A stretch of 64,000 nt of DNA. It comes from a virus. Taxonomy: Duplodnaviria > Heunggongvirae > Uroviricota > Caudoviricetes. The notes below the pieces were generated by a model. The model was given only the letters and a program-made list of their open reading frames with translations, made no database searches and had not been told where the DNA came from. Location: IMG/VR virus record IMGVR_UViG_3300044557_000292, positions 64,001 to 128,000 of that record, one strand, 5' to 3'. Each line of letters starts with the position of its first letter. Position 1 is the stretch's first letter. A program made the position numbers and the translations under genes. Shown piece after piece: positions 1 to 48,275 of this stretch.

Positions 1-110
1 ATCTTACGACCGTCACTACCACGCCAGTAACCCGACACGCTCACTCCCCCGCGTTCGTATGGCTCGACCCACGTAGCACCCTCCTCGGGTGGGTTACCAT
101 GATCACTCAT
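1..110 (-). CDS. GATWVExYxRxGVxVxGYWR-tag family protein, 5' part only (runs off window start)
   Basis: Not in ORF track. Reverse complement reads GGGAGG SD, then MSDHGNPPEEGATWVEPYERGGVSVSGYWRGSDGRK, open to base 1. Confidence 0.85.
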   Translation of the reverse strand, partial: MSDHGNPPEEGATWVEPYERGGVSVSGYWRGSDGRK

Positions 111-222
111 CTTTATTCCTCCCTATGTACTTGAACCTTTTCCGCTTCTATATTGATCTAACGTAGGATACGAGTTCAAGGCTCAACCCAGCAACGTGGG
201 GAATACACGGGGTTCATCCTAT

Positions 223-238
223 GTTACAATAGAATCGT
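223..238 (+). promoter_or_regulatory. Extended -10 promoter motif (T)GTTAYAATRGAATCGT; further copies at 1608-1623 and 30445-30460
   Basis: Three near-identical 16-mers with TGnTAYAAT, each 25-55 nt upstream of an SD plus ATG. Confidence 0.6.
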
Positions 239-267
239 AATCATTTACTTAGAGGGGAATCAGAATC

Positions 268-738
268 ATGCTTCGACTCGACATTGTCATCAACATCATC
301 GTCATGGGCGTCCTCATGCTCGCCCTCATCGCTCCAGTATCCCTGGTCGTGAGATCGTGGAGATCTAACGGTATAGAGGATCACAACCTAGCGGAGGTCT
401 TATCAGTCTTCCTCGGCGTCATTCTTATCTTCATCATGATCATCATAATCTTCCAGCTCGCACCGTTCAACCCGAAGTACTGGACGATCAACCAGTACCA
501 CGGCACGGTCACGAGCATCAGCAAGACCGTCGTGAGCACGGGAGACGGTGGGGCTAACGCGACACCGTCATTCCTCATCCACATGAAGAACAGTGATGGC
601 AGGCCAGACGGCAACGCTTATTTGTCAACAGATACCAGACTCCTTGGCTATGGTAGGGGTGACGACTTGAGCCTGGCCTGCACGTGGGATTGGAATTACG
701 CGGCTGCCGACAAGCTTGAGTGCACTGTGTCCAAGTAG
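268..738 (+). CDS. Hypothetical membrane protein (2 TM segments plus small beta-rich domain)
   Basis: 156-aa ORF, GAGGGG SD, two hydrophobic segments. Confidence 0.7.
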   Translation: MLRLDIVINIIVMGVLMLALIAPVSLVVRSWRSNGIEDHNLAEVLSVFLGVILIFIMIIIIFQLAPFNPKYWTINQYHGTVTSISKTVVSTGDGGANATPSFLIHMKNSDGRPDGNAYLSTDTRLLGYGRGDDLSLACTWDWNYAAADKLECTVSK

Positions 739-825
739 AACTCGATTGGGATCGGGGTTGGAATGGAATTTCCGGACACGATTGCAGCACGCCACGACCC
801 CGGGCTGGTCGAGCACACGTCTGTT

Positions 826-855
826 ATCCCCACCGCTTATTCGGTGGTTCATCCT
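826..855 (+). repeat. Solitary type I-E CRISPR-repeat-like unit
   Basis: ATCCCCACCGCTTATTCGGTGGTTCATCCT; stem CCACCG/CGGTGG plus TTCATCCT 3' tail. Confidence 0.5.
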
Positions 856-874
856 AGAAGTCAGGTCGAGTCTT

Positions 875-1441: not shown

Positions 1442-1495
1442 CGATCAATGCAGGTTCAGAAGACTACTCGTAATGACGCGGTATCAATATAACGG

Positions 1496-1524
1496 GTATC
1501 CCCCGCTTATGCGGGGTTCATCCT
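1496..1524 (+). repeat. Solitary type I-E CRISPR-repeat-like unit
   Basis: 29-nt GTATCCCCCGCTTATGCGGGGTTCATCCT with CCCCGC/GCGGGG stem. Confidence 0.6.
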
Positions 1525-8800: not shown

Positions 8801-9137
8801 TAGGGGGACGTCCAGGAGTATAGCCGTCGAGCTGGAGTTGAGTATGAAGGACGTGATTGACTACAGGAGGATCATGGCGTCATATCATTGTGATCTTGGC
8901 CGCACGCTGTATGACAGGGTGATCTGGCTTGTCCCGAATCATGTGGTCGGTGATGCTATCGCAGGCGCGGCGGATGATATTGGCATGGGGGAAGACGAGT
9001 ACTCGATCGTCCCGTTCGCCACCGCTGAGCGTAAGAACTCCTTCTTCACGGGTGCGGACATCATACCTGGTAGATGGGAGGGTAGGCATAAGCGTGTCGT
9101 TCCCCTTATCGATCCCGAGGGGGTGCTATTGTCATGA
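5898..9137 (+). CDS. Replication-relaxation (Replic_Relax-like, wHTH + PD-(D/E)xK) protein with ~600-aa acidic disordered N-terminus
   Basis: C-terminal motifs RDVRALDFLSRWSYATTAQVAR, LWYVTDRG, SHTIGL, HLPDMVV, IAVELELSMK; GGAGG SD before GTG. Confidence 0.65.
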   Translation: MAGNPFMFNDDSSEDKPSEDPVVFKIPEDTGESLNEESSIGGNSEDDLIVFTPPVGSSVIDDGKTAPNTHDGHTLDPNRQSGEDAIKSNPVTHPNDVDSIVDHSNDDSPVETGNPFFNRGLREAGDHTLSNGDHDVSTSAHDETDSRLRRTDDAKADSPHVSTAGSPFSFMGDDEDSTIADSVDVFQVPDVNEDGLNEDGLVSQPVMLSGGDQDDGLLNGVIDSGVRSEDSSGGDSHLDSSIDDGISRPSSTSVRDDDRGDDDRREDESVSRNEVLNDVGVNPFSQSEGNEINDPVSDYNSAGNDREGEDHVSVFPQGVDVSQDDRNDHEGEDTPIVFVTPEDDHDVDAVRNPVDGDVKDDGEESGQDDLGDGADTGGHVTTDLEFDRPAGKNPDPGDSTRGGHVDHNGRADDSNDHPGNGVHAGTGAGASTGGDGSHEPGSSTGGDEDGQSTGGDLGDDDLDDRGGVVFPLVPSLDSHDGDDDGDSVEDHDDPHNEASVTPPSIPINPNSSIMDDSNGGVGEWVEGDDDAWAEWSGDGTEDGGVKDDGQESVDGVGFDIGGEDSSVHTGYDEILEDDHVDDRGGSAGREGDGEGGEPTGGLRKVRAPGARYAASMERDQRGLHDPTWEQDDGSVQTGVALGDGRAAAERARKTYSEVRGKLHEFSEIGRYDPNLARSLQLLEWKLKRPIAFTMRDVRALDFLSRWSYATTAQVARVGGWRDRAHHRMDRRFENWTEFGFARWQQLFGGPRLWYVTDRGALHSQHPWMGGVSVERLNPMSQSHTIGLSSVASWLLAPDSSLTRLPAGPPDVLGLGDEWPGLREEIGSGEAVIISEREYRSGYSKIRNRQAGLLPVEYRRALLGASPGMTGGDPIESLMGDWASAYRKGVDDLGDAPDWRTLEYESQGADMWLWVIWGNYVWCKGDVVPIESRLDRATNRPKLRRDLGDEFALLDHLPDMVVARKRDPSRGTSRSIAVELELSMKDVIDYRRIMASYHCDLGRTLYDRVIWLVPNHVVGDAIAGAADDIGMGEDEYSIVPFATAERKNSFFTGADIIPGRWEGRHKRVVPLIDPEGVLLS

Positions 9138-11497
9138 CGCATAAGATGGATGACGACGATGCGGATTTGTGGATTGATCCCATGAGCCCCGCTAATACTT
9201 CCGGTTCTGATCGTTTGGATGACGGGGATCGTGGGGAGACTATTGCTAGCAATGGTGATGACAAGGAGGCTCGCGTTCATGAAGATCATGATACTGGTGG
9301 TAGCCGGGCTCGTGAGGATCACGGCGTGGTCGGGGATGGTGGTGGAATCATGAATGACTATGAGGCCATTCTGGACGACGATCTGGGCGAGTGGGATGCC
9401 GGTAATCCTGGATCCCAGGGTGGTGCTCATTCTAATAAGATCGATGGCGACTCGGAGGGTCTTATCAGGGCTCTTGAGCATGAGCACGACGTTGATATTA
9501 GCATCCCCGATTCTTACGGGGTCTCGGTTGATGATCCTGATGCTTCCGAGGTCAGGGTTGAGGATGCGCTCAATGATGAATGGGCTGATCCCGATGGCGA
9601 CGTCATCCTTGTGAGTGAGACGATACGACGAGACGAGGACGATGCTGGAGTCGCCCACTCGTCTCAGGAGTCGGGTGGGGGAGATCTTAGTGACGGGGGT
9701 GATGCGGGTGGTAATGCTCCCATTGATGACGATACGGAAGATGGCGGCGTATGGGATCAGCCTCAGGATGATGGTGAAGAATCACCCCAGGATGCTGTGG
9801 GGTCAGGTGTTGTGGAGTCCATAGGGAATGCTGATCGCTCTAATGATCATGCAGTCCCAGGGGAAGAGCAGGACGATCATCTTGAATCCAATGATGCTCA
9901 TGAAGAATTGGGGGGTAACGCTGGTGTTGATACCGGTGATGATCATGAGAATCCTCCTATTACTGATGACTCTTCTAACGCTAGTGCCAACGATCACATC
10001 AAGCCTGATGCCATGCTAGATCAAGATCATGATGGTGTTGATGATCGTGAGGAATCACAGTCTATTGATGCTATGGCCATGCGGGCTGGCAGTGGCCAAC
10101 GTAGTGATGACGGCAGCCCTGCTGCTGGTAATGGTTCTGTGAGTCGTGAAGAGCTTAAGCTGGTCGTCCGGAATCTTGAAGAGCGTGCAGCCGGGCTTGG
10201 GGTAGATGGTTCTGGTGGTCAATTGGAGTCCGGGCTGCCGTTGCCGTCTAGCGATGCTGCTGTTGAAGACGATCATGCTGATGCTGTTCAGGTGAAGCCT
10301 ACCGCTGATGGGCTGAACAGGCTCATCGGCCCGAGTGATGTTGGTAGGGAGGCATTCGACGTTGACGCTATCCTGAATGACGCGATTGATCATAGGGCGT
10401 CTGATGTTCACATTATGGCTGGTAGGATGATCAAGCTTCGTATTGATGGCATCATGTACGGGTTCACGAAGTATGAGCCGATGGACTCGTATGACATGAA
10501 CGCCTTCGTGACTGACCCTGGTAATGGGCTTGTTGATGCTGACAATATGAATGAGTTCAGGAGGACGAAGTCTGTTGATAAGGCCTACGTGGTGAAGACG
10601 GGCAGGCATGTTGGGGAGAGGTTCAGGGTCCACATGGCCGAGGAGTTCCACGGGTATGGGTTCGTGTTCAGGCACGTGCGTCCAGAGATCTTCACCCCGG
10701 AGGAGATAGGGATACCAGATGACGTGATGGGGTGGACTAGGCTAGGTCAGGGTCTCATCCTTGTTACCGGTCCTACTGGATCGGGGAAGTCAGCAACTCT
10801 AGCCACTCTCATTAGGTCTATACAGTTGAATCGCGCCGTCAAGATCATCACGCTTGAGGAGCCGATAGAGACGCTGTACCCTCTTGACGGTCTTGCGGAC
10901 ATCTGGCAGAAGGAGATTCCCGATAATGAGGACGAGTTCGAGCAGGGCGTTCGTGACGCGATGCGTGAGGATCCAGACGTCATGCTGATTGGAGAGATCA
11001 GGGATATCGGTACGCTGCGGGCGACTATGCAAGCGTGTAATACCGGTCACCTCGTGTTCGCCACGATCCACGCGTCGTCAGCTCCTGACGTGATTACTCG
11101 TGTGATGGAGTTCGCTGGTGATGGATCTGACAGGGAGCAGTTGAGGTCGGATCTCGCGCGGAATCTTAGGGGCATCCTCTCACAGCGCCTCCTCCTGAGG
11201 AAGGGTGGCGCGGGTAGGCTGGCGGTTAGGGAGATCATGCATGTTGACGCTAAGACTCGTAGGCTCATCATTGGTAACGATGTTGACAAGATGACGAGGA
11301 GTCTTAAGATGCGTGGTGAGGATCTTGACTCGCAGGCTCTCCTCCTCGCTCTTGAGGGTAGGGTGTCCGTTAGATCTGCTCTGTCCGTCAGTGCTGATCC
11401 CAATGGGTTCATTGCTATGACATCATTACTCAGTGATAGAGCTAGGAGGCTTATTGATGCGGTAGGTGATTGGACGGGAGCCCCTCATGATGAGTGA
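9134..11497 (+). CDS. PilT/PilU-like secretion ATPase with ~390-aa acidic N-terminal extension
   Basis: ASDVHI, GPTGSGKS, ITLEEPIE, MREDPDVMLIGEIRD, TGHLVFATIHA, LRGILSQRL; 4-bp overlap with upstream gene. Confidence 0.9.
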   Translation: MTHKMDDDDADLWIDPMSPANTSGSDRLDDGDRGETIASNGDDKEARVHEDHDTGGSRAREDHGVVGDGGGIMNDYEAILDDDLGEWDAGNPGSQGGAHSNKIDGDSEGLIRALEHEHDVDISIPDSYGVSVDDPDASEVRVEDALNDEWADPDGDVILVSETIRRDEDDAGVAHSSQESGGGDLSDGGDAGGNAPIDDDTEDGGVWDQPQDDGEESPQDAVGSGVVESIGNADRSNDHAVPGEEQDDHLESNDAHEELGGNAGVDTGDDHENPPITDDSSNASANDHIKPDAMLDQDHDGVDDREESQSIDAMAMRAGSGQRSDDGSPAAGNGSVSREELKLVVRNLEERAAGLGVDGSGGQLESGLPLPSSDAAVEDDHADAVQVKPTADGLNRLIGPSDVGREAFDVDAILNDAIDHRASDVHIMAGRMIKLRIDGIMYGFTKYEPMDSYDMNAFVTDPGNGLVDADNMNEFRRTKSVDKAYVVKTGRHVGERFRVHMAEEFHGYGFVFRHVRPEIFTPEEIGIPDDVMGWTRLGQGLILVTGPTGSGKSATLATLIRSIQLNRAVKIITLEEPIETLYPLDGLADIWQKEIPDNEDEFEQGVRDAMREDPDVMLIGEIRDIGTLRATMQACNTGHLVFATIHASSAPDVITRVMEFAGDGSDREQLRSDLARNLRGILSQRLLLRKGGAGRLAVREIMHVDAKTRRLIIGNDVDKMTRSLKMRGEDLDSQALLLALEGRVSVRSALSVSADPNGFIAMTSLLSDRARRLIDAVGDWTGAPHDE

Positions 11498-14142: not shown

Positions 14143-15258
14143 TTAGCCCATGATCATTGAGATGGAATCACCGGAGAAGTCAGAGTAACTCACCCTGGTG
14201 GGCTTGACACCATCTATGTTATTATTCCAAATCTCCGGTTCTTCCGTGAACACTCCGGCGCGGTGGAGCTCAACTACCGCCTTGGCATTCTTGCTCTTAA
14301 AGTTGGGATCATCAGATCTGTTCTTATCGATGACTGATTTGGGAAGCCATCGTCCACCGTTTCCGCGGCCAAGGGCAGTATAGTTGTCCATCCCGCGTTG
14401 ATATCGTGATTCTGCTCTACCTACGCTTACATCAGGATCAATGTCAACGAACACAGCCTTGATGTCTTTATAGCCGGACGATCTTAGAAGATCGATCTTA
14501 CTCTGGATCTTTTTAGCATTCCCCATGGTCCCATCAATGATGATGTTGATCTTCCTGGAGGCCGCTTCCATCAAGATCATCTTAGTTATGTCTGACGCCT
14601 CCTCATGGACTAACGGGCACGCCTCCATTGGTGTGAGACCCTTGATTCTCGGAATCTTACCCCTCCTGGCGAGCTCTTCCTTAATGTCATCGTTATTGAT
14701 GACAAGATATGATTTAGGATCATATCCGGCCATCTTAAGAACGGTGGTCTTACCCGCTCCCCCAAGCCCACCGGTAAACAGAACCTTGCCCTCACGCTTG
14801 ACGTTCTTAGCTGATTTCATTACCTTCTCCACAATGTCGAGATGAAGAGCTTGCCGTTCTTTATCATAAACACGAACGCCCTCCGGGAGGATTCTGGTGT
14901 GACTGCTCCTAGTGTCCTTATGAGCTTTCACGGCTGCGTTCGTCACGTCCTCAACGAACGCTTTACGGTAGTCACGATCTAGCTTGCTGATCTGAGTATG
15001 ATTCCTGATGGCGTCATTTAGGATTCGCTTCTGGTACTCAGCTCTTTCGACCAGGGATGGTGGAGTCCGTTTTGACAAAGCCTGCGTACTGGCGTTATTC
15101 TTATTGATCTGTTCTAGCCTATGTTCTAATTCCTTCCTGCTACCCGCAGTGAGGTGCTCTGATTCATTATGGATTCTACACGGTCTTCCTTCCTCGGTCA
15201 TGCATTGAGCCCATGACCCGTCGGGCTTCTGATGCCATGTTTCAGCAGGTCTCCTCAT
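14143..15258 (-). CDS. Zeta-toxin-family P-loop kinase with N-terminal Cys/His module
   Basis: FTGGLGGAGKTT, INNDDIKEEL, LVHEEAS, IIIDGTM, GGRWLP; start MRRPAETW after GGAG. Confidence 0.85.
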   Translation of the reverse strand: MRRPAETWHQKPDGSWAQCMTEEGRPCRIHNESEHLTAGSRKELEHRLEQINKNNASTQALSKRTPPSLVERAEYQKRILNDAIRNHTQISKLDRDYRKAFVEDVTNAAVKAHKDTRSSHTRILPEGVRVYDKERQALHLDIVEKVMKSAKNVKREGKVLFTGGLGGAGKTTVLKMAGYDPKSYLVINNDDIKEELARRGKIPRIKGLTPMEACPLVHEEASDITKMILMEAASRKINIIIDGTMGNAKKIQSKIDLLRSSGYKDIKAVFVDIDPDVSVGRAESRYQRGMDNYTALGRGNGGRWLPKSVIDKNRSDDPNFKSKNAKAVVELHRAGVFTEEPEIWNNNIDGVKPTRVSYSDFSGDSISMIMG

Positions 15259-15465
15259 GAGTTCACGCTCCGTTTGATACTTATAGTTTTTGCACGTTGT
15301 GAAAAGAAATCTAACTAAAAATGAACATGATGATAATACGATCAGCACCCACAGACTCTATCAAACAGATTGGTCAATTAGTACAGAAATAGTCTCTTGT
15401 AGAAGCATGGGCGCGGTACTATCTTCAATGATATTTTCATATTGCCATGTAAGGGAGGGATCATC

Positions 15466-19067: not shown

Positions 19068-19910
19068 CTATTCTTTTACTCTGTAATGATTGTGAACGTG
19101 GATGCCATTCCGATCATAGGACCTTACGTGAATAGCCTTATGATTAAATTCTGTTGATACTGTAATATCGGTATGATAACCACTTTTATTTTGGTCTTGA
19201 TTGCTATTGTTCTTACTCGGTGGTGAAGAATTGCCTTCTAAACTATGAATCTCATTAAGACCTGATTTGTCTTCATTGAAATCAGAGAGCCAATTAATAA
19301 TCTCGTCATTTCTGTCAAGATAATAATCTGACAGTTTTTCATTGAACTCTACAGATTTTGAACCGGATGGAACTGTAAAATATTCATTATCTATACCGTG
19401 CTTAAGGAGAAGGCCGTTAGCCGCCAGTAATGCTGTTCGCTTATTCCCATCCCAGAACGGTTGCATCTTGGCAAGCATGGCGAAGCATATTGATGCTGAC
19501 ATCGAGATATTATCATTTGCTTCAGAATCACATTCTTTCATGATGTTGTCAACAGCGTCCACATCTGGTATAGGAGGAATGTACTGTTCTCCATAGATGG
19601 TATTCACTCCAATGTTCTCATTGTCCCTAATCTTTCCAGGCCATAATGAGGCAGTCCTCGTGATTCCAGAGTTAATTGCTTGAAGGAGGGTGTGATCAAA
19701 TGGAAGATGATCATAATCGTACTCTAGAGCTATTCTAGAGCACTCCTTGAGGTCAAGCATGAGATCCCTATTCTGGACCGTTGATAGGACGTCGGTATTA
19801 CCCGTTCTCAGGAACTCTTCAGTTGACATTCTTGTCCCCTTGAAGTCATCAAAGACCGTTCCCATGTCATAGAGTAACCCGGCAAGTTTTTTCACGTCCA
19901 TATTACTCAC
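19068..19910 (-). CDS. Fic/DOC family protein with variant active-site motif and C-terminal tag-like motif
   Basis: QPFWDGNKRTA (His to Gln versus HPFxDGNGR), PGKIRD; tail HVRSYDRNGIHVHNHYR. Confidence 0.85.
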   Translation of the reverse strand: MSNMDVKKLAGLLYDMGTVFDDFKGTRMSTEEFLRTGNTDVLSTVQNRDLMLDLKECSRIALEYDYDHLPFDHTLLQAINSGITRTASLWPGKIRDNENIGVNTIYGEQYIPPIPDVDAVDNIMKECDSEANDNISMSASICFAMLAKMQPFWDGNKRTALLAANGLLLKHGIDNEYFTVPSGSKSVEFNEKLSDYYLDRNDEIINWLSDFNEDKSGLNEIHSLEGNSSPPSKNNSNQDQNKSGYHTDITVSTEFNHKAIHVRSYDRNGIHVHNHYRVKE

Positions 19911-22979: not shown

Positions 22980-23102
22980 TTCCAGAATCGATTCATGTCA
23001 CACCTCATGATCATCTTATGACGATCATGGCATCTTAGTTAGATTCCAGAAACAGTTAGATTGTTTATAGAGTTGTTACAATACGAGACTATGGAGGAAT
23101 CA

Positions 23103-24680: not shown

Positions 24681-24745
24681 CATCTTCGACTGTTGACGCT
24701 TGTAGTTAGATTTGCATTATCTGCTTATTTTATAAGGGAGGGAAT

Positions 24746-31101: not shown

Positions 31102-31890
31102 TCATTGTCCTTCGCCCGCCTCAAGATCCTCACCGGTCCTCCTCCACCTAGCCTGGCGGAGGTAATCCCTTAACTCCTTAGGAGTGTTCACGTTATAGGA
31201 GACGGTCTCTCTAACATTCCAATCTGGATCTTTAGCCAACTCACGAAGCGTTTCCTCTGGAGTACTATGATTCCGGACTACCTCAATCTTCACGGTTTCA
31301 TCATCGTTCTTCGCCAAAATGGAGAGGACATCCGGCGGCGTGTTCTCGTTCGCAGCCACCAATTTTCTCAATCCCGTCCCACGTTGTCTGCCAAGGACGT
31401 CAAGCACTTCAGGTTGAGTGTCAGGATCCGCTGCAAGCATGTGCTTCACCTTACGCTCAGCGCCCCACGCGAGATGTAGACGTTTAGTAGAGACTGTAGA
31501 TCTCGTATACGGACTTCCATTATCGGAGGAACTCCGCGCGAGTTCCATATCGGTAACATGTCCGTTCTTATATGAATTCCATATCTCCCGGGTTGTGGCG
31601 TCGGGGCTTCTCATTATATGTCTTCCATAACTCCTGGGCCGTGATGTTTTTCTCCTCACTGTGAGACTTCTTCATGGCGGCGGGCAATGATTGGGCTTCT
31701 GCATCAATCTTCTTCCTCTCGCCATTCTTCATTGTCTTGTGGAGTTCAGATGACGTTAACACTGTCTATACTGGTTCGAGATGCTCACCGTTCGGCACCC
31801 CTTCCGGTACCCGGTGACGTGGACGCCCGCGCGATCGCAATCCTCGACCCAGGTAGCGCCCTGTACCGGTGGCTCACCATGATCACTCGT
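31102..31890 (-). pseudogene. Decayed GATWV-tag gene with HEAT/LRV-repeat body
   Basis: SD AAGGAGG then ACG instead of ATG; tag SDHGEPPVQGATWVEDCDRAGVHVTGYR; +2 insertion, in-frame TAG, second frameshift into 31102-31659 (VAANENTPPDVLSILAKN repeats). Confidence 0.8.
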
Positions 31891-32007: not shown

Positions 32008-32412
32008 TCAAGATTCGAGCTCATAGTGATCTTGGCTGAATGACCCACCCTGCAGCTCGCGGACGCACTTGTTAAGCGCGTTAACGAGCGACTTACCGCC
32101 GCGTGGGTTGAGCGAGATGCTGTGATTCCAACTGTTACCGCATTCGAGGGTGTAATGGAAGTACTCGGTAAGCTCCTGTACGGTGCCCGTTTGCTTTGAG
32201 ACTCGACCGCGATGCGTCTTGATGATCGTGTATGTTCTCGCGCCCTTCTTCTTCAATGTCTTGCTGGGCGCGTCCGGCGCTGACGTAACCTCTACTGGTT
32301 CGAGATGCTCACCGTTCGGCCCTCTCCAGTACCCGGAGACGTGGACGCCCGCGCGATCATAATCCTCGACCCAGGTAGCGCCCTGTACCGGTGGTTCACC
32401 ATGATCACTCAT
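32008..32412 (-). CDS. GATWV-tag family protein, short phage-like body
   Basis: MSDHGEPPVQGATWVEDYDRAGVHVSGYWRGPNG; GGGAGG SD. Confidence 0.88.
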   Translation of the reverse strand: MSDHGEPPVQGATWVEDYDRAGVHVSGYWRGPNGEHLEPVEVTSAPDAPSKTLKKKGARTYTIIKTHRGRVSKQTGTVQELTEYFHYTLECGNSWNHSISLNPRGGKSLVNALNKCVRELQGGSFSQDHYELES

Positions 32413-32879
32413 CTTATCCTCCCTTATTGCGTTATAGTCATATTAACGTGCCATTGATCTAACGGTTACGTTAGCATACCATTAATCTAACGAATCAATG
32501 CTCTTCTTACTAGAAATCACTGTACTCCATCGTTTCAGCCATGTGGATACGGGGATGCAAAACGTTTATACCAGATAGTAGGGCGTGATGGAATATAAGC
32601 ACCGCAGCGCGCACGGAGTCAACGCTTGATTTGAGTCTTGTTTTAAGCTCTTCACCAGATAATCCATTAATCAAGTTGTGAGATCGCAGTAAGGCTGTTA
32701 TTGGATAGTTAACCAATAACAGCCTTTTTCTAAAGCTCTTGAATTAAATGATGTGGCCGATAACCTCATTGGCTATTCCATCATTGAACCCAATCTAATC
32801 TGCCTCTGCGATCTCACAAGGCTTGTTCCCGTCATTTAGAATATGATGCCTACTACTCTAAACAACGCGCTATGATGGA

Positions 32880-35647: not shown

Positions 35648-35831
35648 TTTTGAGCTCATTGATCCTTATAGAATTCTATAGAATATTGTAGAATTTCCTT
35701 CCACTCTCCGCGGGCTTATTGACCTTAAGACGATCTTATTTGTGAGTCTACAGTAGTTAGATTTAACGTGATGATATTTATTATGATGAAACATCATATT
35801 ATAGGGGTTATAGTACGAGGAGAGTTTGGAC

Positions 35832-37929: not shown

Positions 37930-40779
37930 ATGTATTGTATGTTGACTTTATTAGAATCTAAGCCCTTAGCATCTAAGTTATGGGATAAGACCAAGAATAG
38001 CACGCCATTGGAATCAATTGATTCCAACGATGATAAGGAATATTATTGGACATGCAAGAATCATGGTCATAGCTTCAAGATGTCCCCAAAGAATATTCCC
38101 AATGATTCCAGATTCTGTCCCTTTCATACGCTTTTGCTTATACCAGGTCTTAATGATCTACAAACGGTAGATCCTTCGATAGCCAGTTGGTTTGCTGAGG
38201 ATCTTAACGGCGTGCCAGCAAGCAGAATCAGGGCGAATTCAGGGAAAAGGTTCTGGTGGCGCGACCCCAGGCATCATGATCATGTTTGGCAGTCCTCTCT
38301 TTCCAATAGACGAGGGCAACGATCTGGTTGCCCAATATGTAGCGGTCATGTTCTTCTATCGGGAGTGAATGACATAGCCACAATGGATCCAGTTGAGTCA
38401 GAAATGCTGGATACGGAAAAGAATCACGGGTTGACTCCTGATAAGATTCGATATGGATCTAATGCGAAAATATGGTGGAAATGTTCTAGGGGCCACTCGT
38501 TCCTCAAATCGCCCTCATGGATGAGGAATAATGGTGGTAAGTGCGAGCAGTGTGAGATGGAAGACACTTTATCGATAGCGGCTATGTACCCGGATTTAAT
38601 TCCTTGGTTTGATGATGGTTGCAATAAAGATTCCGCCGATCATACCCCGGCAAAGACCATGATGAAAGTTCATTGGAGGTGTTTTAAGGGTCATGCGTTC
38701 ACCATGAGGCCGTATGATATAGAACATGCTTCTCATAAGTGCGTAAGATGTTATGGGAAGGTGAAGAAACGTGTTGTTGAGGGGATAAACGATCTTGCAT
38801 CTCAACGTCCTGACTTATTAAAGCGGTGGGCTTATGATCGTAATAAAGATGATCCCAAAACGGTCAGGATTACTTCTAATAAAGAGTACTGGTGGACGTG
38901 CAAAGAACATCCTGATCATTTGTTCAAGTGCTCTGTGAAGAGAATGAGCTCTCTCGCTAAGAATCAGTGCCCGTATTGCTCTGGAGAAGAGACTCTAGTT
39001 GGGTTCAATGACCTCTTCACCATGATTCCAGAGTTCAAAGGAATATGGGATTACGAGAACAATGCGATTGATCCATCAACAATCCGCGTACAAACTAGAG
39101 GTACTGGAGCTTGGTGCAATAATGATGATGTTCTTTCCTGGAGGTGTTCTAAGGGTCATCACTGGAAATGCAAGATTTCAGATCTTCGAAGAGGCAATCA
39201 CAAGCATTGTCCATACTGCTTGGGAAAGATTATGCTTCCTGATCATTCTAATAGCATTGCGTCAGATTATCCAATTGTTCTTAAGGAATGGTTTTCTGAT
39301 AAGAATGGCGACCCCAACAATATAACTACAGGATCTTCGATAAGAAGCAAGATCTATTGGAAATGCTCTAATTGCGGAGGAATATGGAAGACGCGACCGT
39401 TCTACTATATTAACAACGTATCTTTTAAGCATGACAATAACTGTCCTTATTGCCACGATCGGGAGTTACTGACCGGTCTCAACGATCTTGCCACCAGGCG
39501 GCCAGATCTGATTCCAATGTGGTCAGAGAAGAATGACAAGGGTCCAGGTGAGTACATCTTCAACAGTCATGAAGAGGTGATATGGAAGTGCCCGGCTGGT
39601 CATCATCGTGAATGGAGAGATTCCATTCGCAATGAGGTCAACGGAGGGTACACTGCTGGATGCTACGTCTGCAAGAATAAGGTCTATTCGCTTGGAGAGA
39701 ACGATCTTGCTACGCTGCGCCCAGATCTGGTAAAAGAATGGGCGTATGATCTCAATAAGACCAGACCAGAAGATCATATGATCAATGATAGAACGCCAAT
39801 TATGTGGAGGTGCAAGAATGGCCATGTATGGACTTGTTCTATTTCCGGAAGAGCATTTGATCATAATGGGTCTTGTTTCAGATGCGCATCTGGTCTTCAT
39901 ACGAGTGAACCAGAGAATGAGATTACCAGTTATCTAAGATCTATTCTTGGACATGATGAGATAATCGTTAATAACGATAGAAAGATTCTTGGAGGACCCG
40001 AGCTTGACATTTATCTTCCTAACCGTCATGTCGCTATTGAATATAATGGTCTCTATTGGCATTCGGTTCTAGTAGACAATCAATTCAATAAGACTCGTCA
40101 TTATGAGAAATACACGTCTTGCAAGCAATTGGGAATCCGCCTCATACAGATCTGGGAAGATCAGTGGCTCGATCACCCCGATATTGTTAAGGACTCATTG
40201 AGAGCAATACTGAAGCCTGAGACCATGATTAAGGAGAACGCTCGGTCACTTCATGTCGAAGAACCAGAGAGATCATATGCTCAGAAGTTTCTTGATGAGA
40301 ATCACATTCAAGGGCATGCGGGAGGATGCTCATACCTCGCTCTCGTCGATGATCATCATATGATTAAGGCCTGCATGGCTTACAGGGTGAATGATTCCGA
40401 GTTCAATCTTGTTCGATATGCGTCCGAGCTAGGTCATAACGTAAGAGGTGGATTGAGCAAGCTTTTAAAGCATTCGATAAGCATCGTGAATAAAGACGAT
40501 AAACGGGTAGATCATGTGGTGACATTCAGTGATAACACGATTAGCGAGGGTGCGTCATATGAGAAGATAGGATTCCACATTGATAAGGAAATTCCTCCAG
40601 ATTACTCTTACGTGAGTGGGAAGCATCGTTTCCACAAGTTCTTGTATCGTAAGAAGAGATTCCGTGATGATCCTGATCTTAAGTATGATCCAACTGCTCA
40701 TGAGTCAGAGCTTGCTGAGATGAATGGTCTTAATCGTATCTACGATGCGGGTAAGATCCGCTGGAGGATGAACGTCTAG
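37930..40779 (+). CDS. Zinc-ribbon repeat (DUF4379-like) protein with C-terminal Vsr-like/Hef-like endonuclease; putative free-standing homing endonuclease
   Basis: About 10 WWxC..GH.....CPYC...G.NDL repeats; ELDIYLPNRHVAIEYNGLYWHS, LIQIWEDQW, FLDENHIQG, RIYDAGKIRW. Confidence 0.88.
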   Translation: MYCMLTLLESKPLASKLWDKTKNSTPLESIDSNDDKEYYWTCKNHGHSFKMSPKNIPNDSRFCPFHTLLLIPGLNDLQTVDPSIASWFAEDLNGVPASRIRANSGKRFWWRDPRHHDHVWQSSLSNRRGQRSGCPICSGHVLLSGVNDIATMDPVESEMLDTEKNHGLTPDKIRYGSNAKIWWKCSRGHSFLKSPSWMRNNGGKCEQCEMEDTLSIAAMYPDLIPWFDDGCNKDSADHTPAKTMMKVHWRCFKGHAFTMRPYDIEHASHKCVRCYGKVKKRVVEGINDLASQRPDLLKRWAYDRNKDDPKTVRITSNKEYWWTCKEHPDHLFKCSVKRMSSLAKNQCPYCSGEETLVGFNDLFTMIPEFKGIWDYENNAIDPSTIRVQTRGTGAWCNNDDVLSWRCSKGHHWKCKISDLRRGNHKHCPYCLGKIMLPDHSNSIASDYPIVLKEWFSDKNGDPNNITTGSSIRSKIYWKCSNCGGIWKTRPFYYINNVSFKHDNNCPYCHDRELLTGLNDLATRRPDLIPMWSEKNDKGPGEYIFNSHEEVIWKCPAGHHREWRDSIRNEVNGGYTAGCYVCKNKVYSLGENDLATLRPDLVKEWAYDLNKTRPEDHMINDRTPIMWRCKNGHVWTCSISGRAFDHNGSCFRCASGLHTSEPENEITSYLRSILGHDEIIVNNDRKILGGPELDIYLPNRHVAIEYNGLYWHSVLVDNQFNKTRHYEKYTSCKQLGIRLIQIWEDQWLDHPDIVKDSLRAILKPETMIKENARSLHVEEPERSYAQKFLDENHIQGHAGGCSYLALVDDHHMIKACMAYRVNDSEFNLVRYASELGHNVRGGLSKLLKHSISIVNKDDKRVDHVVTFSDNTISEGASYEKIGFHIDKEIPPDYSYVSGKHRFHKFLYRKKRFRDDPDLKYDPTAHESELAEMNGLNRIYDAGKIRWRMNV

Positions 40780-41639
40780 TCCCTGGTAAGAGATTCCTCG
40801 TACTCATCCTCCGCATCTGCAAGTACGTCTGCCGTCCATTCCGGGACGTCGTCCCAGGGATAGGGTTCTAGGGTGAGGCCATACAGGCAGTCTGCCTGCA
40901 TGATTTGGCTCACACCGTCAACCCTGGTGGGCCCATCTGGTCCAATGACCATATCACCGATCTTAACCCCGCCCATCGTCGTCTCTGTTCCATCGGCCAG
41001 TGGGATGATCGTGTCGAGGGTGAGTGGTCCTCCGCAGTTATGGGTCGGCACGCCGCTCTTCATGACCTCATCGTACTCATCCTTGTCAACGCGATACTCG
41101 ACACCGTTGCTCGATGGGATCGTCTTCAAATCGGGCTGATCGGTATTCGACCAATTGCCCTTCTGATCAGTATGCTCGAGTAGGCTAGAGTCATTGCTAG
41201 ATGCGAGTAGGAATGTGTGCGTCGGTGAGTCAACCCTAAGGCACTGCACCTTGATCTTGTCAGCATCATTGTCATCAACGAGCAGGCAACTCTTCACCAT
41301 CCAATGCTTGACTGCACCATCCGGCGTCATGATCGGCGCGAGGATTGGGTGATGACCCCTGGTAGTCCACGTGGCGATGTCCCCCGTGCTCGCCTCAGTC
41401 TCCCCCCTGTATGCTAGGGGGACGTCTGACGATGATGGGTCAAGTGGCCATACGTGACCAGCGTCAGCATTGTATGAATCCACATGACCATACGTGTCAA
41501 CGAACGTGATCCTGTAAAGCTCGCTCGGAGTCTCAGCACTAGTCTTGGAGAGGACTATCGAGATTCTTCCATCGGCATCAATAGTCCTATCGCCAGTCTT
41601 CACGTCAGCAAGACGCTTCGGCATCATCATCCATCTCAT
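40776..41639 (-). CDS. Fractured FtsK/SpoIIIE ATPase, micro-extein piece: long intein C-part + CGG + short intein N-part
   Basis: KRLADVKTGD...ADAGHVW...VQCLRVDSPTHTFL...VPTHN|CGG|PLTLDTIIPLADG...VKIGD...LYGLTL; start placed at the ATG 6 nt after CATATCTT (ORF track start 41675). Confidence 0.88.
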   Translation of the reverse strand: MRWMMMPKRLADVKTGDRTIDADGRISIVLSKTSAETPSELYRITFVDTYGHVDSYNADAGHVWPLDPSSSDVPLAYRGETEASTGDIATWTTRGHHPILAPIMTPDGAVKHWMVKSCLLVDDNDADKIKVQCLRVDSPTHTFLLASSNDSSLLEHTDQKGNWSNTDQPDLKTIPSSNGVEYRVDKDEYDEVMKSGVPTHNCGGPLTLDTIIPLADGTETTMGGVKIGDMVIGPDGPTRVDGVSQIMQADCLYGLTLEPYPWDDVPEWTADVLADAEDEYEESLTRD

Positions 41640-41766
41640 GTCATGAAGATATGAGTCTTCAATCATTCTATGCATATGTGATCACGTGTGTCCATATTGA
41701 ATTCGATGATAGATTACATGTGTTATTAATGGTGTCTGATCTTGATTGATTATAATGATGGAGGAT

Positions 41767-42558
41767 ATGATGGGTGATCATGGGGAGCCACCGGAGGAGG
41801 GCGCTACCTGGGTGGAGGACTACGAGCGCGCGGGCGTCCACGTCTCCGGGTACTGGCGTGGTAGGGATGGGCATAAGATCTATCAGGTGGAGGAGTCGGG
41901 GCCACGGTCCCTTGGAGGCGGCTTTGACCCTGGGGATTCTAACGTTCTTAGGAAGAAGAGACCTGGCGAGCGTGACTGGGATCGCGTGAACGTGAGGATC
42001 GAGAATCTTATCCATAAGGAAGGTCGTCTATCGAAGGGGGACGTTGAGGGTCTTAAGGACACGACCGTACAGCTCATCATGTCAAAGCGTAAGATTAACA
42101 GGGGTACCTATGATAACGCTCGCGTCGCATACGAGATAGATCCAGACTCTGCCAGCATGGATGAGTACGTTGCCCTCAGTCTTTACTCCCACATCACCGC
42201 CGTCAAACTAGCTGAGTCAAAGAAACTTGACAAGAACAAGGTTGGTCTCCTCATTCATAATGGTGGTGATCTAGCCATTGAAGCCCTGGCGTCTAATCCA
42301 GATCTCCCAGACGACTGCTGGGAGATGGTTGAGTCGCAGTGCAGCTGGAATGAGGGCGTGTGCGCAAGACTTGCCTGCAATCCGTCATGGCCTAACGCTA
42401 ATGCAGCCGGGAGGCTGTATGCGAGTGGACAATGGGGTGAGATACCGGCCATGGGCGTTACGTTATTAGAACGCGGTGATCTTGATGATGACGTGAAGCG
42501 GGGTATCTTGAAGATGAATGATCAGTGGAATAAGGATCGTCGCTGGTATAATGGTTAA
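41767..42558 (+). CDS. GATWV-tag family protein with LRV/HEAT-like helical body
   Basis: MMGDHGEPPEEGATWVEDYERAGVHVSGYWRGRDG; ALASNPDLP, LACNPSWP. Confidence 0.87.
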   Translation: MMGDHGEPPEEGATWVEDYERAGVHVSGYWRGRDGHKIYQVEESGPRSLGGGFDPGDSNVLRKKRPGERDWDRVNVRIENLIHKEGRLSKGDVEGLKDTTVQLIMSKRKINRGTYDNARVAYEIDPDSASMDEYVALSLYSHITAVKLAESKKLDKNKVGLLIHNGGDLAIEALASNPDLPDDCWEMVESQCSWNEGVCARLACNPSWPNANAAGRLYASGQWGEIPAMGVTLLERGDLDDDVKRGILKMNDQWNKDRRWYNG

Positions 42559-43434: not shown

Positions 43435-44091
43435 TCACTGCTCTTTACGCAGTATAGCATTCTTGATGAGTGTCATGGTCGTGTCACTGCTGGATATCTC
43501 ATCCGCGCACTTCTTGAGCAGCTCGTGAATAGAGCCATCCTCGTCTCTAACATTCCTCTTATAGTTGATCTGATGCTCTAGTGATGACCATGCGTCCATT
43601 GCGATCGTCCTGATTTGAATCTCCGCCTTGATCTTCCCATCACCTGGAATCGTGACGATAAGGTGATAACTCCTGTAACCACTAGGCTTGGGACGGGCTA
43701 TGTAGTCTTTCTCCTCGATGACTGAGCCTCCCCTTCCTACGATAAGATCTTTTATGATTCCAACGGCGTCATAGACGTTGTCCGTGAAGCTGCACACGAC
43801 GCGAACACCAACCACATCATGCATCATGTTAACGGCCGTGCGCCCATCTAAACCCATATTGTTTTTTGAGAGCTTCTCCATCATTGACGACGGATCTTTG
43901 ATCCTACCATTCACGTACTCAATCGGCTCGACGCCGGGCTCCTCACCCCTGCCCATCTGGTCAGAGCAGTCGCGGAGTATCTTCATAAGCCATTGGTACG
44001 CTGAGGTCAACATTTGTAATGATTCACCATAATATTCTTCATAGGAAGTCCTGTCCCCAATGATTCCATCTGGAGCGGCCATTGTGATCAT
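43435..44091 (-). CDS. Small alarmone (p)ppGpp synthetase (RelA_SpoT domain, RelP/RelQ-like)
   Basis: GRIKDPSSMMEKL, DVVGVRVVC, KDYIARPKPSGYRSYHL, EIQIRTIAMDAWSSLEH. Confidence 0.95.
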   Translation of the reverse strand: MITMAAPDGIIGDRTSYEEYYGESLQMLTSAYQWLMKILRDCSDQMGRGEEPGVEPIEYVNGRIKDPSSMMEKLSKNNMGLDGRTAVNMMHDVVGVRVVCSFTDNVYDAVGIIKDLIVGRGGSVIEEKDYIARPKPSGYRSYHLIVTIPGDGKIKAEIQIRTIAMDAWSSLEHQINYKRNVRDEDGSIHELLKKCADEISSSDTTMTLIKNAILRKEQ

Positions 44092-45284: not shown

Positions 45285-45497
45285 ATGCACGATTAGTGAA
45301 AGATCGTTAGGAGTAGTCTTAGCAATATTGTTGAACGTCCTGCTCCCAGTGAAGATATCCTTTACCGCATCTATGGACCATACGATCCAGTCAAACACCC
45401 AGGCGAAGAACTTGAACGGGTTTCCGAACACGGATATGATCGCGAGACCAAGACCAATGGCCAGTATCATGATTAAGATCTTCTTGATCATAAGCAC
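45267..45497 (-). CDS. Small membrane protein
   Basis: 76 aa, hydrophobic N-half. Confidence 0.55.
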   Translation of the reverse strand: MLMIKKILIMILAIGLGLAIISVFGNPFKFFAWVFDWIVWSIDAVKDIFTGSRTFNNIAKTTPNDLSLIVHLIIGR

Positions 45498-45667
45498 GCC
45501 CCTTGTTCACATGAAGTAAGAACAATATGAAATCTATCATTGTAATGAAGATATCAATGGATTGCCACTAAAACTCAAATAAGAATTATCTTGATCTGGG
45601 ATATCTTGTATACAAATGTATACATTCTCTATTAAAATGTCTTTATTAAGGAATCGTTAGGAGCATC

Positions 45668-46540
45668 ATGCAGAGAATCGTAACCCATAGCAGAAGATCA
45701 ATAGGAATCATAGCCGTCATCACGTCAGTCATACTGACTGCGGGATGCTCCTCATCATGGCTAGTTGAGAAAACCAATCAGTCCTATGAGTCTCATGGAG
45801 TGTCGTCTGCCCCATCGTCTTCAAGTGAAGGCGCTAATGATTCTGGGAGCACGTCAGATTCTAATGGTAATGACGAGACAAGCAGCCCAGATGATCTTAC
45901 CCTTCTGTCATCATGGAATTCTAGCGAAGCGCCGAACTATTACGCCGTGACCGGTAAGGCGAATCTCCCATCTGATCTGGTGGCACCAGGCAAGGTTGAC
46001 TACCAGGGACTGGATAGCCTTGGCAGGACTGGATACGCTCACGCTAACATCACGGGGAAGATGATATCCGACTCCGCGGGGTGGCGCGCACCGTTTGATG
46101 ATACAGCGGACGAGATCTCAGGATGGAGGAATCCCACGACCGGGAGGAGTAATAACGGTAAGACTAGCATCGTGCTTGACACGGGCAAGACCTACCACGG
46201 GTACTTCTACAACAGGTCTCACCTCGTGGCCGACTCCCTGGGCGGGGCGGCCACGAGAACCAACCTGATAACCGGTACGAGGATGCAGAACGTTGGCGAT
46301 AACTCCTCCAAACCGGGCGGCATGGCCTACACGGAATCACAAGTCCGTGATTATTCTAAAACCCATAATGCCGTGACGTTCGCATATTACGTTCAACCAG
46401 TCTATAAGGGCAACGAGATTGTACCTAGGGGCGTCACGGTAGACGTGAAGAGTTCTGACGGTGCTATTGACGAGCACGTGGTCGTGTGGAATTACGCGAA
46501 CGGGCACACGATAGACTATAATACTGGAGCATGGAAGTAA
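45668..46540 (+). CDS. Lipoprotein DNA/RNA non-specific endonuclease (streptodornase/EndA-like)
   Basis: Lipobox LTAGC; LDSLGRT, NRSHLVADSLGG, NLITGTRMQN, GGMAYTE, PVYKGNEIVPRG. Confidence 0.92.
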   Translation: MQRIVTHSRRSIGIIAVITSVILTAGCSSSWLVEKTNQSYESHGVSSAPSSSSEGANDSGSTSDSNGNDETSSPDDLTLLSSWNSSEAPNYYAVTGKANLPSDLVAPGKVDYQGLDSLGRTGYAHANITGKMISDSAGWRAPFDDTADEISGWRNPTTGRSNNGKTSIVLDTGKTYHGYFYNRSHLVADSLGGAATRTNLITGTRMQNVGDNSSKPGGMAYTESQVRDYSKTHNAVTFAYYVQPVYKGNEIVPRGVTVDVKSSDGAIDEHVVVWNYANGHTIDYNTGAWK

Positions 46541-46589
46541 ACAGTACGTATGATCTTATGAATCAGTGGGATCAGTAATGATCGCCTTG

Positions 46590-47219
46590 CTAATCTGGAA
46601 GGGCAGATCGTCCATCAGATGAATACACGCCATCTGGTTCATCGTTTACCTCGTCATCTTGATAATATTCAAGAAGTTTGTCTGATGTTTCCTTCTTCAT
46701 GGCTAAACGCAAGTTCGACTCGACCACATTACGATTCTTATCTCGATGCACCGTCTCATCGGCATAGACGTCTCCGTACTTCGTTGGTATAAGATACGTC
46801 TCGCGAGTATATGAGTCATTGGGATCATTGACTGCTGACGAGAAGTCATCGGGTTCTATAGGAGTAATTCGGAGTAATTCTGGCTTACCTATTGGATACT
46901 TGGCCGGCGCGCCGTTGATCAGCACGTCGTTCATGTTACTGAGAACAGTGCCATCCTCCATATCCTCACCGAAACCAGAGTATGTCGCATAATCCCCCTT
47001 GGGAAGAATGGGCTGGCCATTCCTGTCGATTTTTGGACTAGTTTTAACTAGATTCTCCTTCTTGAGCACTGGACTAGCAAACGTTGTACTAGTTGATTCC
47101 AGTGATTGAAGTCTCTTCCCGTTCGGCCCCCTCCAGTACCCGGTGACGTGGACGCCCGCGCGCTCGTAGTCCTCGACCCAGGTAGCGCCCTGTACTGGTG
47201 GCTCACCATGATCACTCAT
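46590..47219 (-). CDS. GATWV-tag family protein
   Basis: MSDHGEPPVQGATWVEDYERAGVHVTGYWRGPNG; AAGGAGG SD. Confidence 0.88.
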   Translation of the reverse strand: MSDHGEPPVQGATWVEDYERAGVHVTGYWRGPNGKRLQSLESTSTTFASPVLKKENLVKTSPKIDRNGQPILPKGDYATYSGFGEDMEDGTVLSNMNDVLINGAPAKYPIGKPELLRITPIEPDDFSSAVNDPNDSYTRETYLIPTKYGDVYADETVHRDKNRNVVESNLRLAMKKETSDKLLEYYQDDEVNDEPDGVYSSDGRSALPD

Positions 47220-47258
47220 CTTATTCCTCCTTCATTACACGTTATTGAATAAATTAAG

Positions 47259-48275
47259 CTACCTGTTCATATATTCTGGGAGTACGTCCCTAATCATGTC
47301 CGCGGCCTCATGGAAGCTGGCTGCCGCCCATTGGTCGCCGTCATATTCAGCATCGTCTCCCGCATCGTCATACTGATCAACTTTGTCCAGGAGTTCGTGG
47401 GCAGCTATTGACGCCGATGTGGAATCAATGAATGAGTTGTGTTTAACGATGCCATCAATATCGCTCGCAACCGACCCATAAACAATCTTTGAGTGGTCAT
47501 CAGTAACGTCTCTCCTAGACCTCATGTAGGAATCTTTGAGCTTGGACACCCTGTCCTTGAATTCTAATCCAATTGGGCTGGTATCACTAACGGGTATCTT
47601 CCAAGCGTCATTCTTATCTACGCCCTCGTACACGTCTGAGGTCAATTCCCCATCACTGCTCATGTGGAGGATCACAGCGTCATCATTGCCCGTCTTGTCA
47701 TTGTACACGTATCCTCTGTAATCACCTGGTAACAAGCGATTGGAAAGAACAGCACCGTAAGCCTCATCTACGTCTCCATCCTGGTCTCCTATAACGCTGA
47801 GGTAGAGGTTCCTGGTTGACCCAGAATCTAGCCTTAGAGTCGGAGCGTAATTGCTCTCATCAACGGAGCTAACGGAAGGATCGATGATTAGTGATGCCTC
47901 TTCAACGTGAGCGCCATTAAGATCTGCTTCCATTGCCTTCGTAATCTCGGTTTGAGACCTTACCCGGCCTCCATTCCCTAGATCGTTCATGATGCGTCTA
48001 ATATTACCCGGATTGCCATTATGGTCAGCCTTGCTCGCAGCGGTCTGAAGGGCTGTCCATTGAGCTTTGGCTTCCTTGCTGGCAAAATTGGAGTGGCCAG
48101 CCTTCTTCTTACTCAAGACGTTTACAGGAGTGCTTGGCCTGCCACCATTAGATTCTCCGATGATGATCTTATGGCCATCTTTACCCCTCCAGTAGCCTGA
48201 CACGTGAGAGCCGGCTCTCTCGTACCCCTCAACCCACGTAGCACCCTGTTCTGGTGGTTCCACATGATCTTCCAT
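47259..48275 (-). CDS. GATWV-tag family protein
   Basis: MEDHVEPPEQGATWVEGYERAGSHVSGYWRGKDG; GGAGG SD before 48275. Confidence 0.87.
   Translation of the reverse strand: MEDHVEPPEQGATWVEGYERAGSHVSGYWRGKDGHKIIIGESNGGRPSTPVNVLSKKKAGHSNFASKEAKAQWTALQTAASKADHNGNPGNIRRIMNDLGNGGRVRSQTEITKAMEADLNGAHVEEASLIIDPSVSSVDESNYAPTLRLDSGSTRNLYLSVIGDQDGDVDEAYGAVLSNRLLPGDYRGYVYNDKTGNDDAVILHMSSDGELTSDVYEGVDKNDAWKIPVSDTSPIGLEFKDRVSKLKDSYMRSRRDVTDDHSKIVYGSVASDIDGIVKHNSFIDSTSASIAAHELLDKVDQYDDAGDDAEYDGDQWAAASFHEAADMIRDVLPEYMNR

Follow-up and report, generated by a model that had tools for sequence, protein, structure and literature searches.

The 64,000-nt stretch of DNA analyzed here (the window) spans positions 64,001 to 128,000 of the 419,707-bp record IMGVR_UViG_3300044557_000292, and dispersed genes within it and in the rest of this element carry, in front of unrelated bodies, one of two N-terminal leaders that tend to end in the same L-x-K motif. 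The first, the W leader, joins a short hairpin to this motif through a variable linker, the second has a Cys/His head, and a common DNA motif lies ahead of genes of both kinds. The original prediction, made from the letters of the window, described the W leader as an N-terminal tag and mentions neither L-x-K nor the other family of leaders nor the upstream motif. Our tentative reading is that the leaders may address their cargo to the transfer machinery of what we take to be a conjugative megaplasmid.

The W leader, its bodies and its relatives

Nine tagged genes had been predicted in the window, and six-frame translation recovers all nine at the starts given for them, eight with ATG and the copy at 31890 with ACG. 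A strict tag pattern has 9 matches in the window and 14 in the genome, and none in each of 30 base-shuffled windows. Intact W-leader genes number 13 on the element, 5 of them outside the window, in addition to a pseudogene at 31890 and a leader fragment at genome position 381265, and nine of the 14 copies are clustered in 50 kb (p=0.00025). The 31890 copy had rightly been called a pseudogene, having frameshifts and a stop besides its ACG start, and intact proteins combining the leader with its LRV-repeat body are found in the relatives P0019, P0027, P0033 and P0037; the copy at 35832, described as divergent, has LGRS instead of L-x-K-K. The tags are not an assembly artefact or repeats, since a run from a different strain covers two of them with scattered differences (7 over 634 bases for the 41767 tag and 12 over 443 bases for the 47219 tag). 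Contigs from an RNA run that touch the 47219 tag were unusable as a sign of expression. As separate observations, in the region of the window from ~1 to 56000, where 9 of the 14 copies are found, GC skew is positive and many genes lie on the plus strand, while elsewhere on the element the minus strand is strongly favoured, and a dispersed non-coding repeat, GTGAGTAAAAAAAACAC...GATAGATC...TCTAAGG, possibly a small mobile repeat, occurs at genome positions 17985, 210063, 397983 and 381300-381400, adjoining the leader fragment once.

The tag had been put at ~33 residues, but the module is ~55 residues long, and consists of the hairpin WVxxYxRxGxxVxGYWR, a variable linker and L-x-K-[KR]. The lysine cluster that had been noted behind the tag is present, though it is not a loose cluster but this positioned motif, 20-29 residues after GYWR. 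Of the element's own 13 proteins, 12 have L-x-K behind the hairpin and 9 have L-x-K-[KR], compared with background rates of 12.3% and 2.1% in 3722 sequence windows. When relatives are added, 35 of 40 leaders have L-x-K (one misplaced), mostly 17-22 residues past the hairpin, and 28 have L-x-K-[KR]; the five that lack L-x-K are three short or truncated sequences and the two members of the 35832 family. Five kinds of codon (TTG, CTT, CTC, CTA and TTA) specify the leucine. Over the 20-codon core the ratio of nonsynonymous to synonymous proportions, pN/pS, is 0.25 (pooled over 78 pairs, uncorrected; pS 0.69), and 10 first, 11 second and 3 third codon positions are invariant, and because the third positions vary most and pN/pS is low, the tag is conserved as protein. 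The aromatic and arginine residues of the hairpin are invariant, and AlphaFold2 predicts residues 13-30 as a two-stranded hairpin (predicted local distance difference test, pLDDT, 86-87) with the remainder disordered. Near-identity of several copies in DNA holds for a subgroup of five, 85-95% identical over a 60-nt core, in some cases including the ribosome site, a sign of recent duplication or conversion; among the other copies identity does not exceed 83%, and the 36-nt string quoted as shared occurs exactly once.

The bodies are indeed unrelated, the best pair among the 13 intact proteins and 3 relatives scoring E=0.15, and they run from 73 to 455 residues where about 100-500 had been estimated. 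None of the 13 intact W-leader proteins, in the window or outside it, matches a family in Pfam, PHROG or NCBIfam, so the proposed anti-defence repertoire is unsupported for the nine window proteins, and no signal peptide or membrane helix is found in any of the 13. A profile of the leader searched against 1.84 billion representatives gave 58 matches. Sorted by hand, 37 of them are proteins of the leader type, 7 of which come from this element or a strain nearly identical to it; another 7 are large proteins in which the hairpin stands bare, 3 are small hairpins of the generic kind, and 11 proved false (Ig repeats, ankyrins and a synthetic construct) and were dropped. The idea of a portable module spread onto a variable repertoire is borne out by the protein-level selection, by the 23 body families among the 37 leader-bearing proteins, and by leaderless paralogs of three bodies. 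The 32412 body has two further leaderless copies on the element, 90-95% identical, with the join immediately behind LKKKG; for the g387382 body there is one leaderless paralog, probably frameshifted; and the relative P0016 is a leader plus an exonuclease, whose ortholog on the element has no leader. Because leaderless copies of bodies coexist on the element, the leader is an addition that complete genes can gain or lose. In the cargo family g323637 the zincin pattern HEYxH...EF, recognized by motif only, is kept in all four sequences, and it is the pattern of the commonest polyvalent-protein domain; the model predicts the motif on one helix and the glutamate on a second, at low confidence (pLDDT 57.5), and the family gave no zincin profile match and only chance matches when its alignment was searched against PDB sequences.

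The hairpin by itself is far more widespread than the leader. A degenerate pattern finds at least 120 loci in species genomes (~200 estimated) and 22 in viral contigs, and 105 distinct in-frame generic hairpins are C-terminal in 56 cases, N-terminal in 18 and internal in 31. Among 40 bare-hairpin proteins scanned there are 8 HipA kinases, 2 staphylococcal-type nucleases, a tape-measure protein and a fusion to an XkdF head protease. Of 5 phage-like loci picked by hand, 4 have the hairpin gene in the head module, two of them being alike in layout; the genes sit between portal and head-morphogenesis genes, and the XkdF fusion adjoins a major head gene. In the 7 large proteins, which are of the giant polyvalent type and have GNAT, Pol-beta NTase, ART, zeta or DdrB-ParB domains, the hairpin stands at the front of modules and occurs in 34 copies, with lysine four residues before the tryptophan in 24 and arginine two before it in 32, and the hairpin-bearing relatives P0020, P0031 and P0046 have several disparate effector domains per polypeptide, unlike the window proteins (127-525 residues), which have one body each. 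The generic hairpin is basic, with a mean charge of +1.85 (n=105) compared with +0.15 (n=13) for the hairpin core on the element (p=0.0014), and L-x-K-[KR] stands behind it once only, so the full leader is a construction particular to this lineage, made on a mini-domain that is common elsewhere. Separately, tape-measure-type proteins of Bacillus prophages (~1920 residues; L165, L169, L172, L177, L179 and L051) have an internal bare hairpin before a Lys/Ser-rich linker.

A match of the tag to a characterized domain with another role would have counted against the original inference, and no match was found in Pfam (0 matches for 9 tag sequences at E up to 10), in PHROGs or NCBIfam, where neither leader has a family, or among PDB sequences, where a single chance match had E 2.2. 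Structural alignment with VIA-align against 48,161 chains returned one row, with Z 2.1 over a stretch too short for meaning, and ESM Atlas features gave no family for either leader. The nearest predicted shapes there are WXXGXW repeats, a weak resemblance (template modelling score, TM, 0.40-0.50 over 32-41 residues). The tagged proteins had no match in PLSDB plasmids, and related leaders had none in viral and metagenome contigs, collections that may lack close records, hence no genomic context. No description of either leader was found in the open-access literature, including the accessible parts of PMC5512222 (supplementary alignments aside), PMC9503650, PMC7824862, PMC10832533 and PMC12934698, and as far as searched both are undescribed.

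A second leader and a common upstream motif

The motif G[TA]TAGAT[TC] lies 37-122 nt ahead of 11 of the 13 W-leader genes, and one of the two genes without it (47219) is directly behind another leader gene (48275). Because the motif had been found in the same gene set, all hexamers were ranked, and TAGATT came first, ahead of 10 of 13 leader genes and 21 of 342 others (Bonferroni p 6e-6). The full motif precedes 9 of the 342 other genes, among them nrdD, nrdG, the 2370-residue VirB6-like gene and a gene ahead of an RcpC/ParA-like pair. We infer that it is a -10-type promoter element that would be read by a plasmid sigma.

The second N-terminal family, G-x-x-x-x-C-x-A-x(4-5)-C-x-x-H followed by a helix, looks like a zinc knuckle by its C/C/H spacing, and is present on 10 open reading frames (ORFs) of at least 100 residues and one short ORF. 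Six of these genes were first noticed through the upstream motif, in a listing of 73 sites, and the others by the protein pattern; 7 of the 10 have the motif upstream. L-x-K occurs in 8 of the 11, at residues 36-84, and L-x-K-[KR] in 5 of 10 compared with 7 of 326 other ORFs near the N terminus. The cargo includes a Toprim primase-like protein, an NAD-dependent ligase, a helicase, a non-specific nuclease, a zeta-like kinase and a protein with a weak LPD1 match, and in the nuclease, at genome position 144698, the leader precedes a lipoprotein-type signal. Searches for the second leader gave only chance matches in PLSDB plasmids and none in 401 sampled genomes, from a phylum drawn around a Mobiluncus genome and with no positive control.

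The element and the possible role of the leaders

Despite its classification as viral, with direct terminal repeats, we read the element as a conjugative megaplasmid. Pfam matches identify a VirB4-like protein (AAA_10/TraG P-loop), a VirD4-like protein (TraG-D_C/TrwB) and, weakly (TrbL/VirB6, E 8e-5), the VirB6-like protein, which has two paralogs, and the element also encodes three VirB11/TadA-like (T2SSE) ATPases, TadB/C, RcpC, a Replicase-family protein, DnaE, gyrase, type I-E Cas proteins and a sigma-70 protein, together with 50 tRNAs and a transfer-messenger RNA (tmRNA). Terminase, portal, capsid, tail structural and head protease families were absent from general scans with Pfam (276 ORFs) and PHROG (226 ORFs), a negative that rests on profiles, which very divergent genes could escape; six-frame searches of the element for Terminase_6N and XkdF found no match, and the apparent tail matches are lysozyme/transglycosylase domains. 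Circular closure is uncertain since both ends of the record fall inside a CRISPR array. The contig ends overlap within this one array. The type I-E arrays, with two repeat variants and some spacers repeated in tandem, lie at genome positions 1-1150, 419309-419707, near 243900 and at 332200-332700. The host is probably actinobacterial, as the best 25 listed DnaE matches are all from Actinomycetota (33-35% identity), and a bifidobacterial host would be a guess from likeness to the plasmid pMP7017. There is no close relative in PLSDB (VirB4 <30%, VirD4 <30%, DnaE 35%). Ten bioreactor-sludge runs from one year, which may be one campaign, hold 72-97% of sampled words; runs in which the share was small were left aside. 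The Hodor megaplasmids were rejected as the element's class, as those are Bacillota with Rep_3, type I-C systems and sortases in the accessible part of their description (PMC12934698).

Several features fit a sorting signal: the head is apparently folded and is followed by a boundary motif at a set place, it comes in two alternative forms, and the cargo is unrelated and regulated in common. We think it a reasonable possibility, somewhat short of an even chance, that the leader sorts proteins for co-transfer into the recipient, with L-x-K as a release site or a second recognition site. The plasmid sigma would switch on the cargo genes together through the -10-type motif, the hairpin or Cys/His knuckle would bind a receptor or chaperone belonging to the type IV apparatus, the leader would thereby let unrelated cargo pass into the recipient by way of the transfer machinery that the plasmid itself encodes, and L-x-K-[KR] would be either the site at which the leader is cut or a second recognition site common to both leaders. 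The hairpin itself was probably recruited from the widespread mini-domain of phage head-module and polyvalent proteins. Co-transfer is ranked first because the type IV core is present (VirB4, VirB6-like, VirD4 and VirB11/TadA-like genes on the same element), head genes are not seen, and co-transfer is known for primases, Fic toxins and the zincin-bearing ArdC/TraC (PMC8406263 and PMC5512222, as far as their accessible parts go). In addition, the second-leader cargo is what a recipient would require early. A bolder version, which we consider rather unlikely, is a delivery code on giant actinobacterial plasmids, with two swappable heads, an L-x-K-K release site, one sigma regulon and a hairpin taken from phage head-packaging proteins, such that any gene placed behind the cassette would have its product injected during mating.

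Several observations weigh against co-transfer. One intact W-leader gene (35832) and 3 of the 11 second-leader genes have no L-x-K. Behind the leader, one second-leader protein has a lipoprotein-type signal and another a membrane helix, which makes them membrane-targeted cargo that is awkward for a type IV system. No candidate protease for the leader was identified, and two trypsin-like genes were rejected in this role, as both start with signal peptides. The bare hairpin also ends HipA kinases and small secreted proteins, so that the hairpin alone is no transfer signal. A search of 150 nt at the VirB4 and VirD4 starts did not find the upstream motif, and nrdD and nrdG have it, so the regulon need not be a transfer regulon. 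Known type IV signals include C-terminal ones. Those described in the accessible part of PMC8406263 are internal. A common N-terminal type IV signal would be unusual. Finally, since no relaxase was found (a TrwC search was negative and the Pfam scans of 276 ORFs gave none), conjugation itself is something we only infer; a readily found relaxase is wanting in other megaplasmids too (PMC12934698, in part).

The foremost alternative, though an unlikely one, is a capsid-targeting propeptide that would pack the cargo into the element's own head or that of a helper phage, where a head protease would cut at L-x-K. Its two-part logic is that of the phage T4 capsid targeting sequence (CTS), in which targeting comes first and the cleavage site last (PMC9026906, in part), and the neighbourhood of the hairpin genes in phage head modules, including the XkdF protease fusion, speaks for it; the record class and the jumbo-phage-like genes (rIIB-like, PhoH, Thy1 and RNA ligase, with the 50 tRNAs) also fit. 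Set against these are the head families missing from the scans, the seven other ORFs with an N-terminal L-x-K-[KR], none of which is shell-like, and the full type IV core gene set.

Next in order, and likewise improbable, the leader may be a regulatory pro-domain or degron that would keep the cargo inactive or send it to ClpP and a Clp-ATPase, with a cut at L-x-K activating it within the same cell. The element has two ClpP and two Clp-type ATPase genes, some of the cargo is potentially harmful (the zeta-like kinase and nucleases), and the lipoprotein-type signal peptide behind one leader is complete and would be exposed on its removal, but the bodies are evidently tolerated without a leader, because leaderless copies persist on the element, and two structurally different heads exceed a degron's needs.

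A nucleic-acid-binding hairpin, one of the roles first proposed for the tag, would tether cargo to single-stranded plasmid DNA or to RNA, and the invariant aromatic and arginine residues, the basic generic hairpins on nucleases, kinases and tape-measure proteins, and the knuckle-like spacing of the second leader are all consistent with it. The neutral hairpin cores of the element weaken it for this lineage, as do whole leaders that are mostly acidic (-6 to +2), and it leaves L-x-K unexplained, so that we regard it as quite unlikely. Ranked below it, and doubtful to much the same degree, is the docking of cargo on an intracellular scaffold, such as a replication or partition focus or the cell pole, with no export. 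Soluble cargo with DNA-metabolic functions and co-regulation with nrdD/nrdG suit such docking, while a scaffold candidate is lacking, it is hard to see what small bodies of the mobile-element type would do at a replication focus, and membrane-anchored cargo exists. Least credible is a DNA expression cassette of promoter, ribosome site and first codons that spreads by recombination with the peptide as passenger, which would account for the five near-identical copies, the shared upstream motif, the clustering within 50 kb and the broken copies and fragments, but not for third codon positions being the most variable at a pN/pS of 0.25, for L-x-K kept with five leucine codons behind a linker lacking DNA similarity, or for the same ending on a second, unrelated leader.

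Table 1. Positions of leader genes, upstream motifs and related features in the window
Feature	Coordinates	Strand	Remarks
W-leader gene w110, 127 aa	1..110	-	runs off window; LSKK 43 bases past edge
W-leader gene, 525 aa	23103..24680	+	leader 23103-23315, end LDKK; body without family
W-leader gene, 239 aa	24746..25465	+	leader 24746-24922, end LNKK; very acidic body
Broken W-leader gene	31102..31890	-	precedes LRV-repeat body 31102-31659
W-leader gene, 134 aa	32008..32412	-	leader 32245-32412, end LKKK
Divergent W-leader gene, 186 aa	35832..36392	+	LGRS replaces L-x-K-K
W-leader gene, 263 aa	41767..42558	+	leader 41767-41958, end LRKK
W-leader gene, 209 aa	46590..47219	-	leader 47055-47219, end LKKE; 40 bases behind 48275 gene
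W-leader gene, 338 aa	47259..48275	-	leader 48105-48275, end LSKK
Second leader on zeta-toxin/AAA_33-like kinase	14143..15258	-	LSKR at 15078
Second leader on 589-aa protein	57964..59733	-	weak C-terminal LPD1 (E 0.012, below cut-off); LRKK at 59547
Leaderless lipoprotein-type non-specific nuclease	45668..46540	+	88% over 232 aa to leader-bearing nuclease
Fic protein	19068..19910	-	degenerate C-terminal hairpin (~19071-19136, 9-10 bits), no L-x-K
Upstream motif GTTAGATC	155..162	-	52 nt before w110
Upstream motif GTTAGATT	15308..15315	-	ahead of zeta-like second-leader gene 14143..15258
Two upstream motifs GTTAGATT	23038..23062	+	ahead of 23103 gene
Upstream motif GTTAGATT	24705..24712	+	ahead of 24746 gene
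Two upstream motifs GTTAGATT, GTTAGATC	32456..32491	-	ahead of 32412 gene
Upstream motif GTTAGATT	35756..35763	+	ahead of 35832 gene
Upstream motif GATAGATT	41708..41715	+	ahead of 41767 gene
Upstream motif GTTAGATT	48305..48312	-	ahead of 48275 gene
Upstream motif GTTAGATT	59771..59778	-	ahead of second-leader gene 57964..59733
TadB-like (T2SSF) and TadA/VirB11-like ATPase genes	60027..62641	-	transfer-apparatus context
Further TadA/VirB11-like ATPase	9134-11497	+	transfer-apparatus context

Other features were noticed in passing. An FtsK/SpoIIIE-like gene is apparently split over 14 kb into ORFs at 40776-41675 (-), 36859-37818 (-) and 27616-28668 (-), whose ends are of the Hint/intein type, THN being found three times, twice at the P-loop; between them lie endonuclease-like genes on the opposite strand. 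It looks like a case of natural split inteins requiring trans-splicing, and the N-terminal piece was not located. The window also has a MoxR-vWA pair (49274-52344, +), an R2K-clade ATP-grasp protein (18005-19054, -) and a small RelA/SpoT protein (43435-44091, -), and an Rfam search of it gave no match. A leaderless metallo-beta-lactamase-fold protein at L009:8673-9449 (-) has an anti-Pycsar Apyc1 match just below the cut-off (E 8e-11).

Comparison with known systems

Two likenesses concern the hairpin. Like the WXXGXW/YXWGXW repeat PF12779, it is Trp/Tyr-rich with V-x-G-Y-W and is predicted to form a two-strand hairpin, though PF12779 forms tandem repeats in secreted proteins while the W leader is a single N-terminal copy on soluble proteins, and none of the 9 tags matched that profile at E up to 10. 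In the case of the polyvalent proteins of phages and conjugative elements (PMC5512222, in part), the likeness is that the hairpin occurs up to 13 times in proteins that have GNAT, Pol-beta NTase, ART, zeta and DdrB-ParB domains, and the cargo here includes a weak LPD1 match and the zincin motif; unlike in those proteins, the cargo is in separate genes, each with its own leader, and the hairpin is not named in that paper as far as its accessible text goes, supplements aside. A partner of the hairpin, once found, would annotate many phage head and polyvalent proteins together.

The Bifidobacterium breve plasmid pMP7017, a conjugative megaplasmid, likewise has type I-E CRISPR and tmRNA, and it provides a precedent for a plasmid-specific promoter motif before a dispersed regulon (PMC10832533, in part). 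It is 190 kb long compared with 420 kb here, its motif is a 34-bp element around TATACT, a shared protein leader is not mentioned in the accessible part of that report, and it was not among the plasmid matches for the element's VirB4, VirD4 and DnaE.

Conjugative type IV secretion systems are known to co-transfer the SogL/TraC primases, ArdC, the F-plasmid proteins ParA, SSB and PsiB, and FicT (PMC8406263 and PMC5512222, in part), and the element has VirB4/VirD4, with primase-like, Fic and zincin-motif proteins among its hairpin- or leader-bearing proteins and relatives; a common N-terminal signal is not described for those substrates in the accessible parts of the two papers, and a relaxase was not found here. 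The leaders bear on how conjugation systems choose protein cargo, above all in the Gram-positive Actinomycetota, and a short portable leader with a sharp boundary lists its own cargo, comprising at least 23 body families, mostly without a function so far, that are candidate early-establishment or counter-defence proteins. The leader could also serve as a protein-delivery handle.

The closest formal parallel to the leaders is the CTS of the T4 internal proteins IPI-III, which is also a short common N-terminal address on unrelated, variable cargo with the boundary motif last (PMC9026906, in part). The CTS has 10-19 residues, is cut after glutamate by gp21 and requires a prohead, whereas the W leader has ~55 residues, a predicted folded hairpin and a lysine motif, on an element with two alternative heads and no head genes detected. 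If the delivery code is true, the hairpin would be named as a general packaging or delivery handle across phages and plasmids, and the code would do for conjugation what the CTS does for the T4 head.

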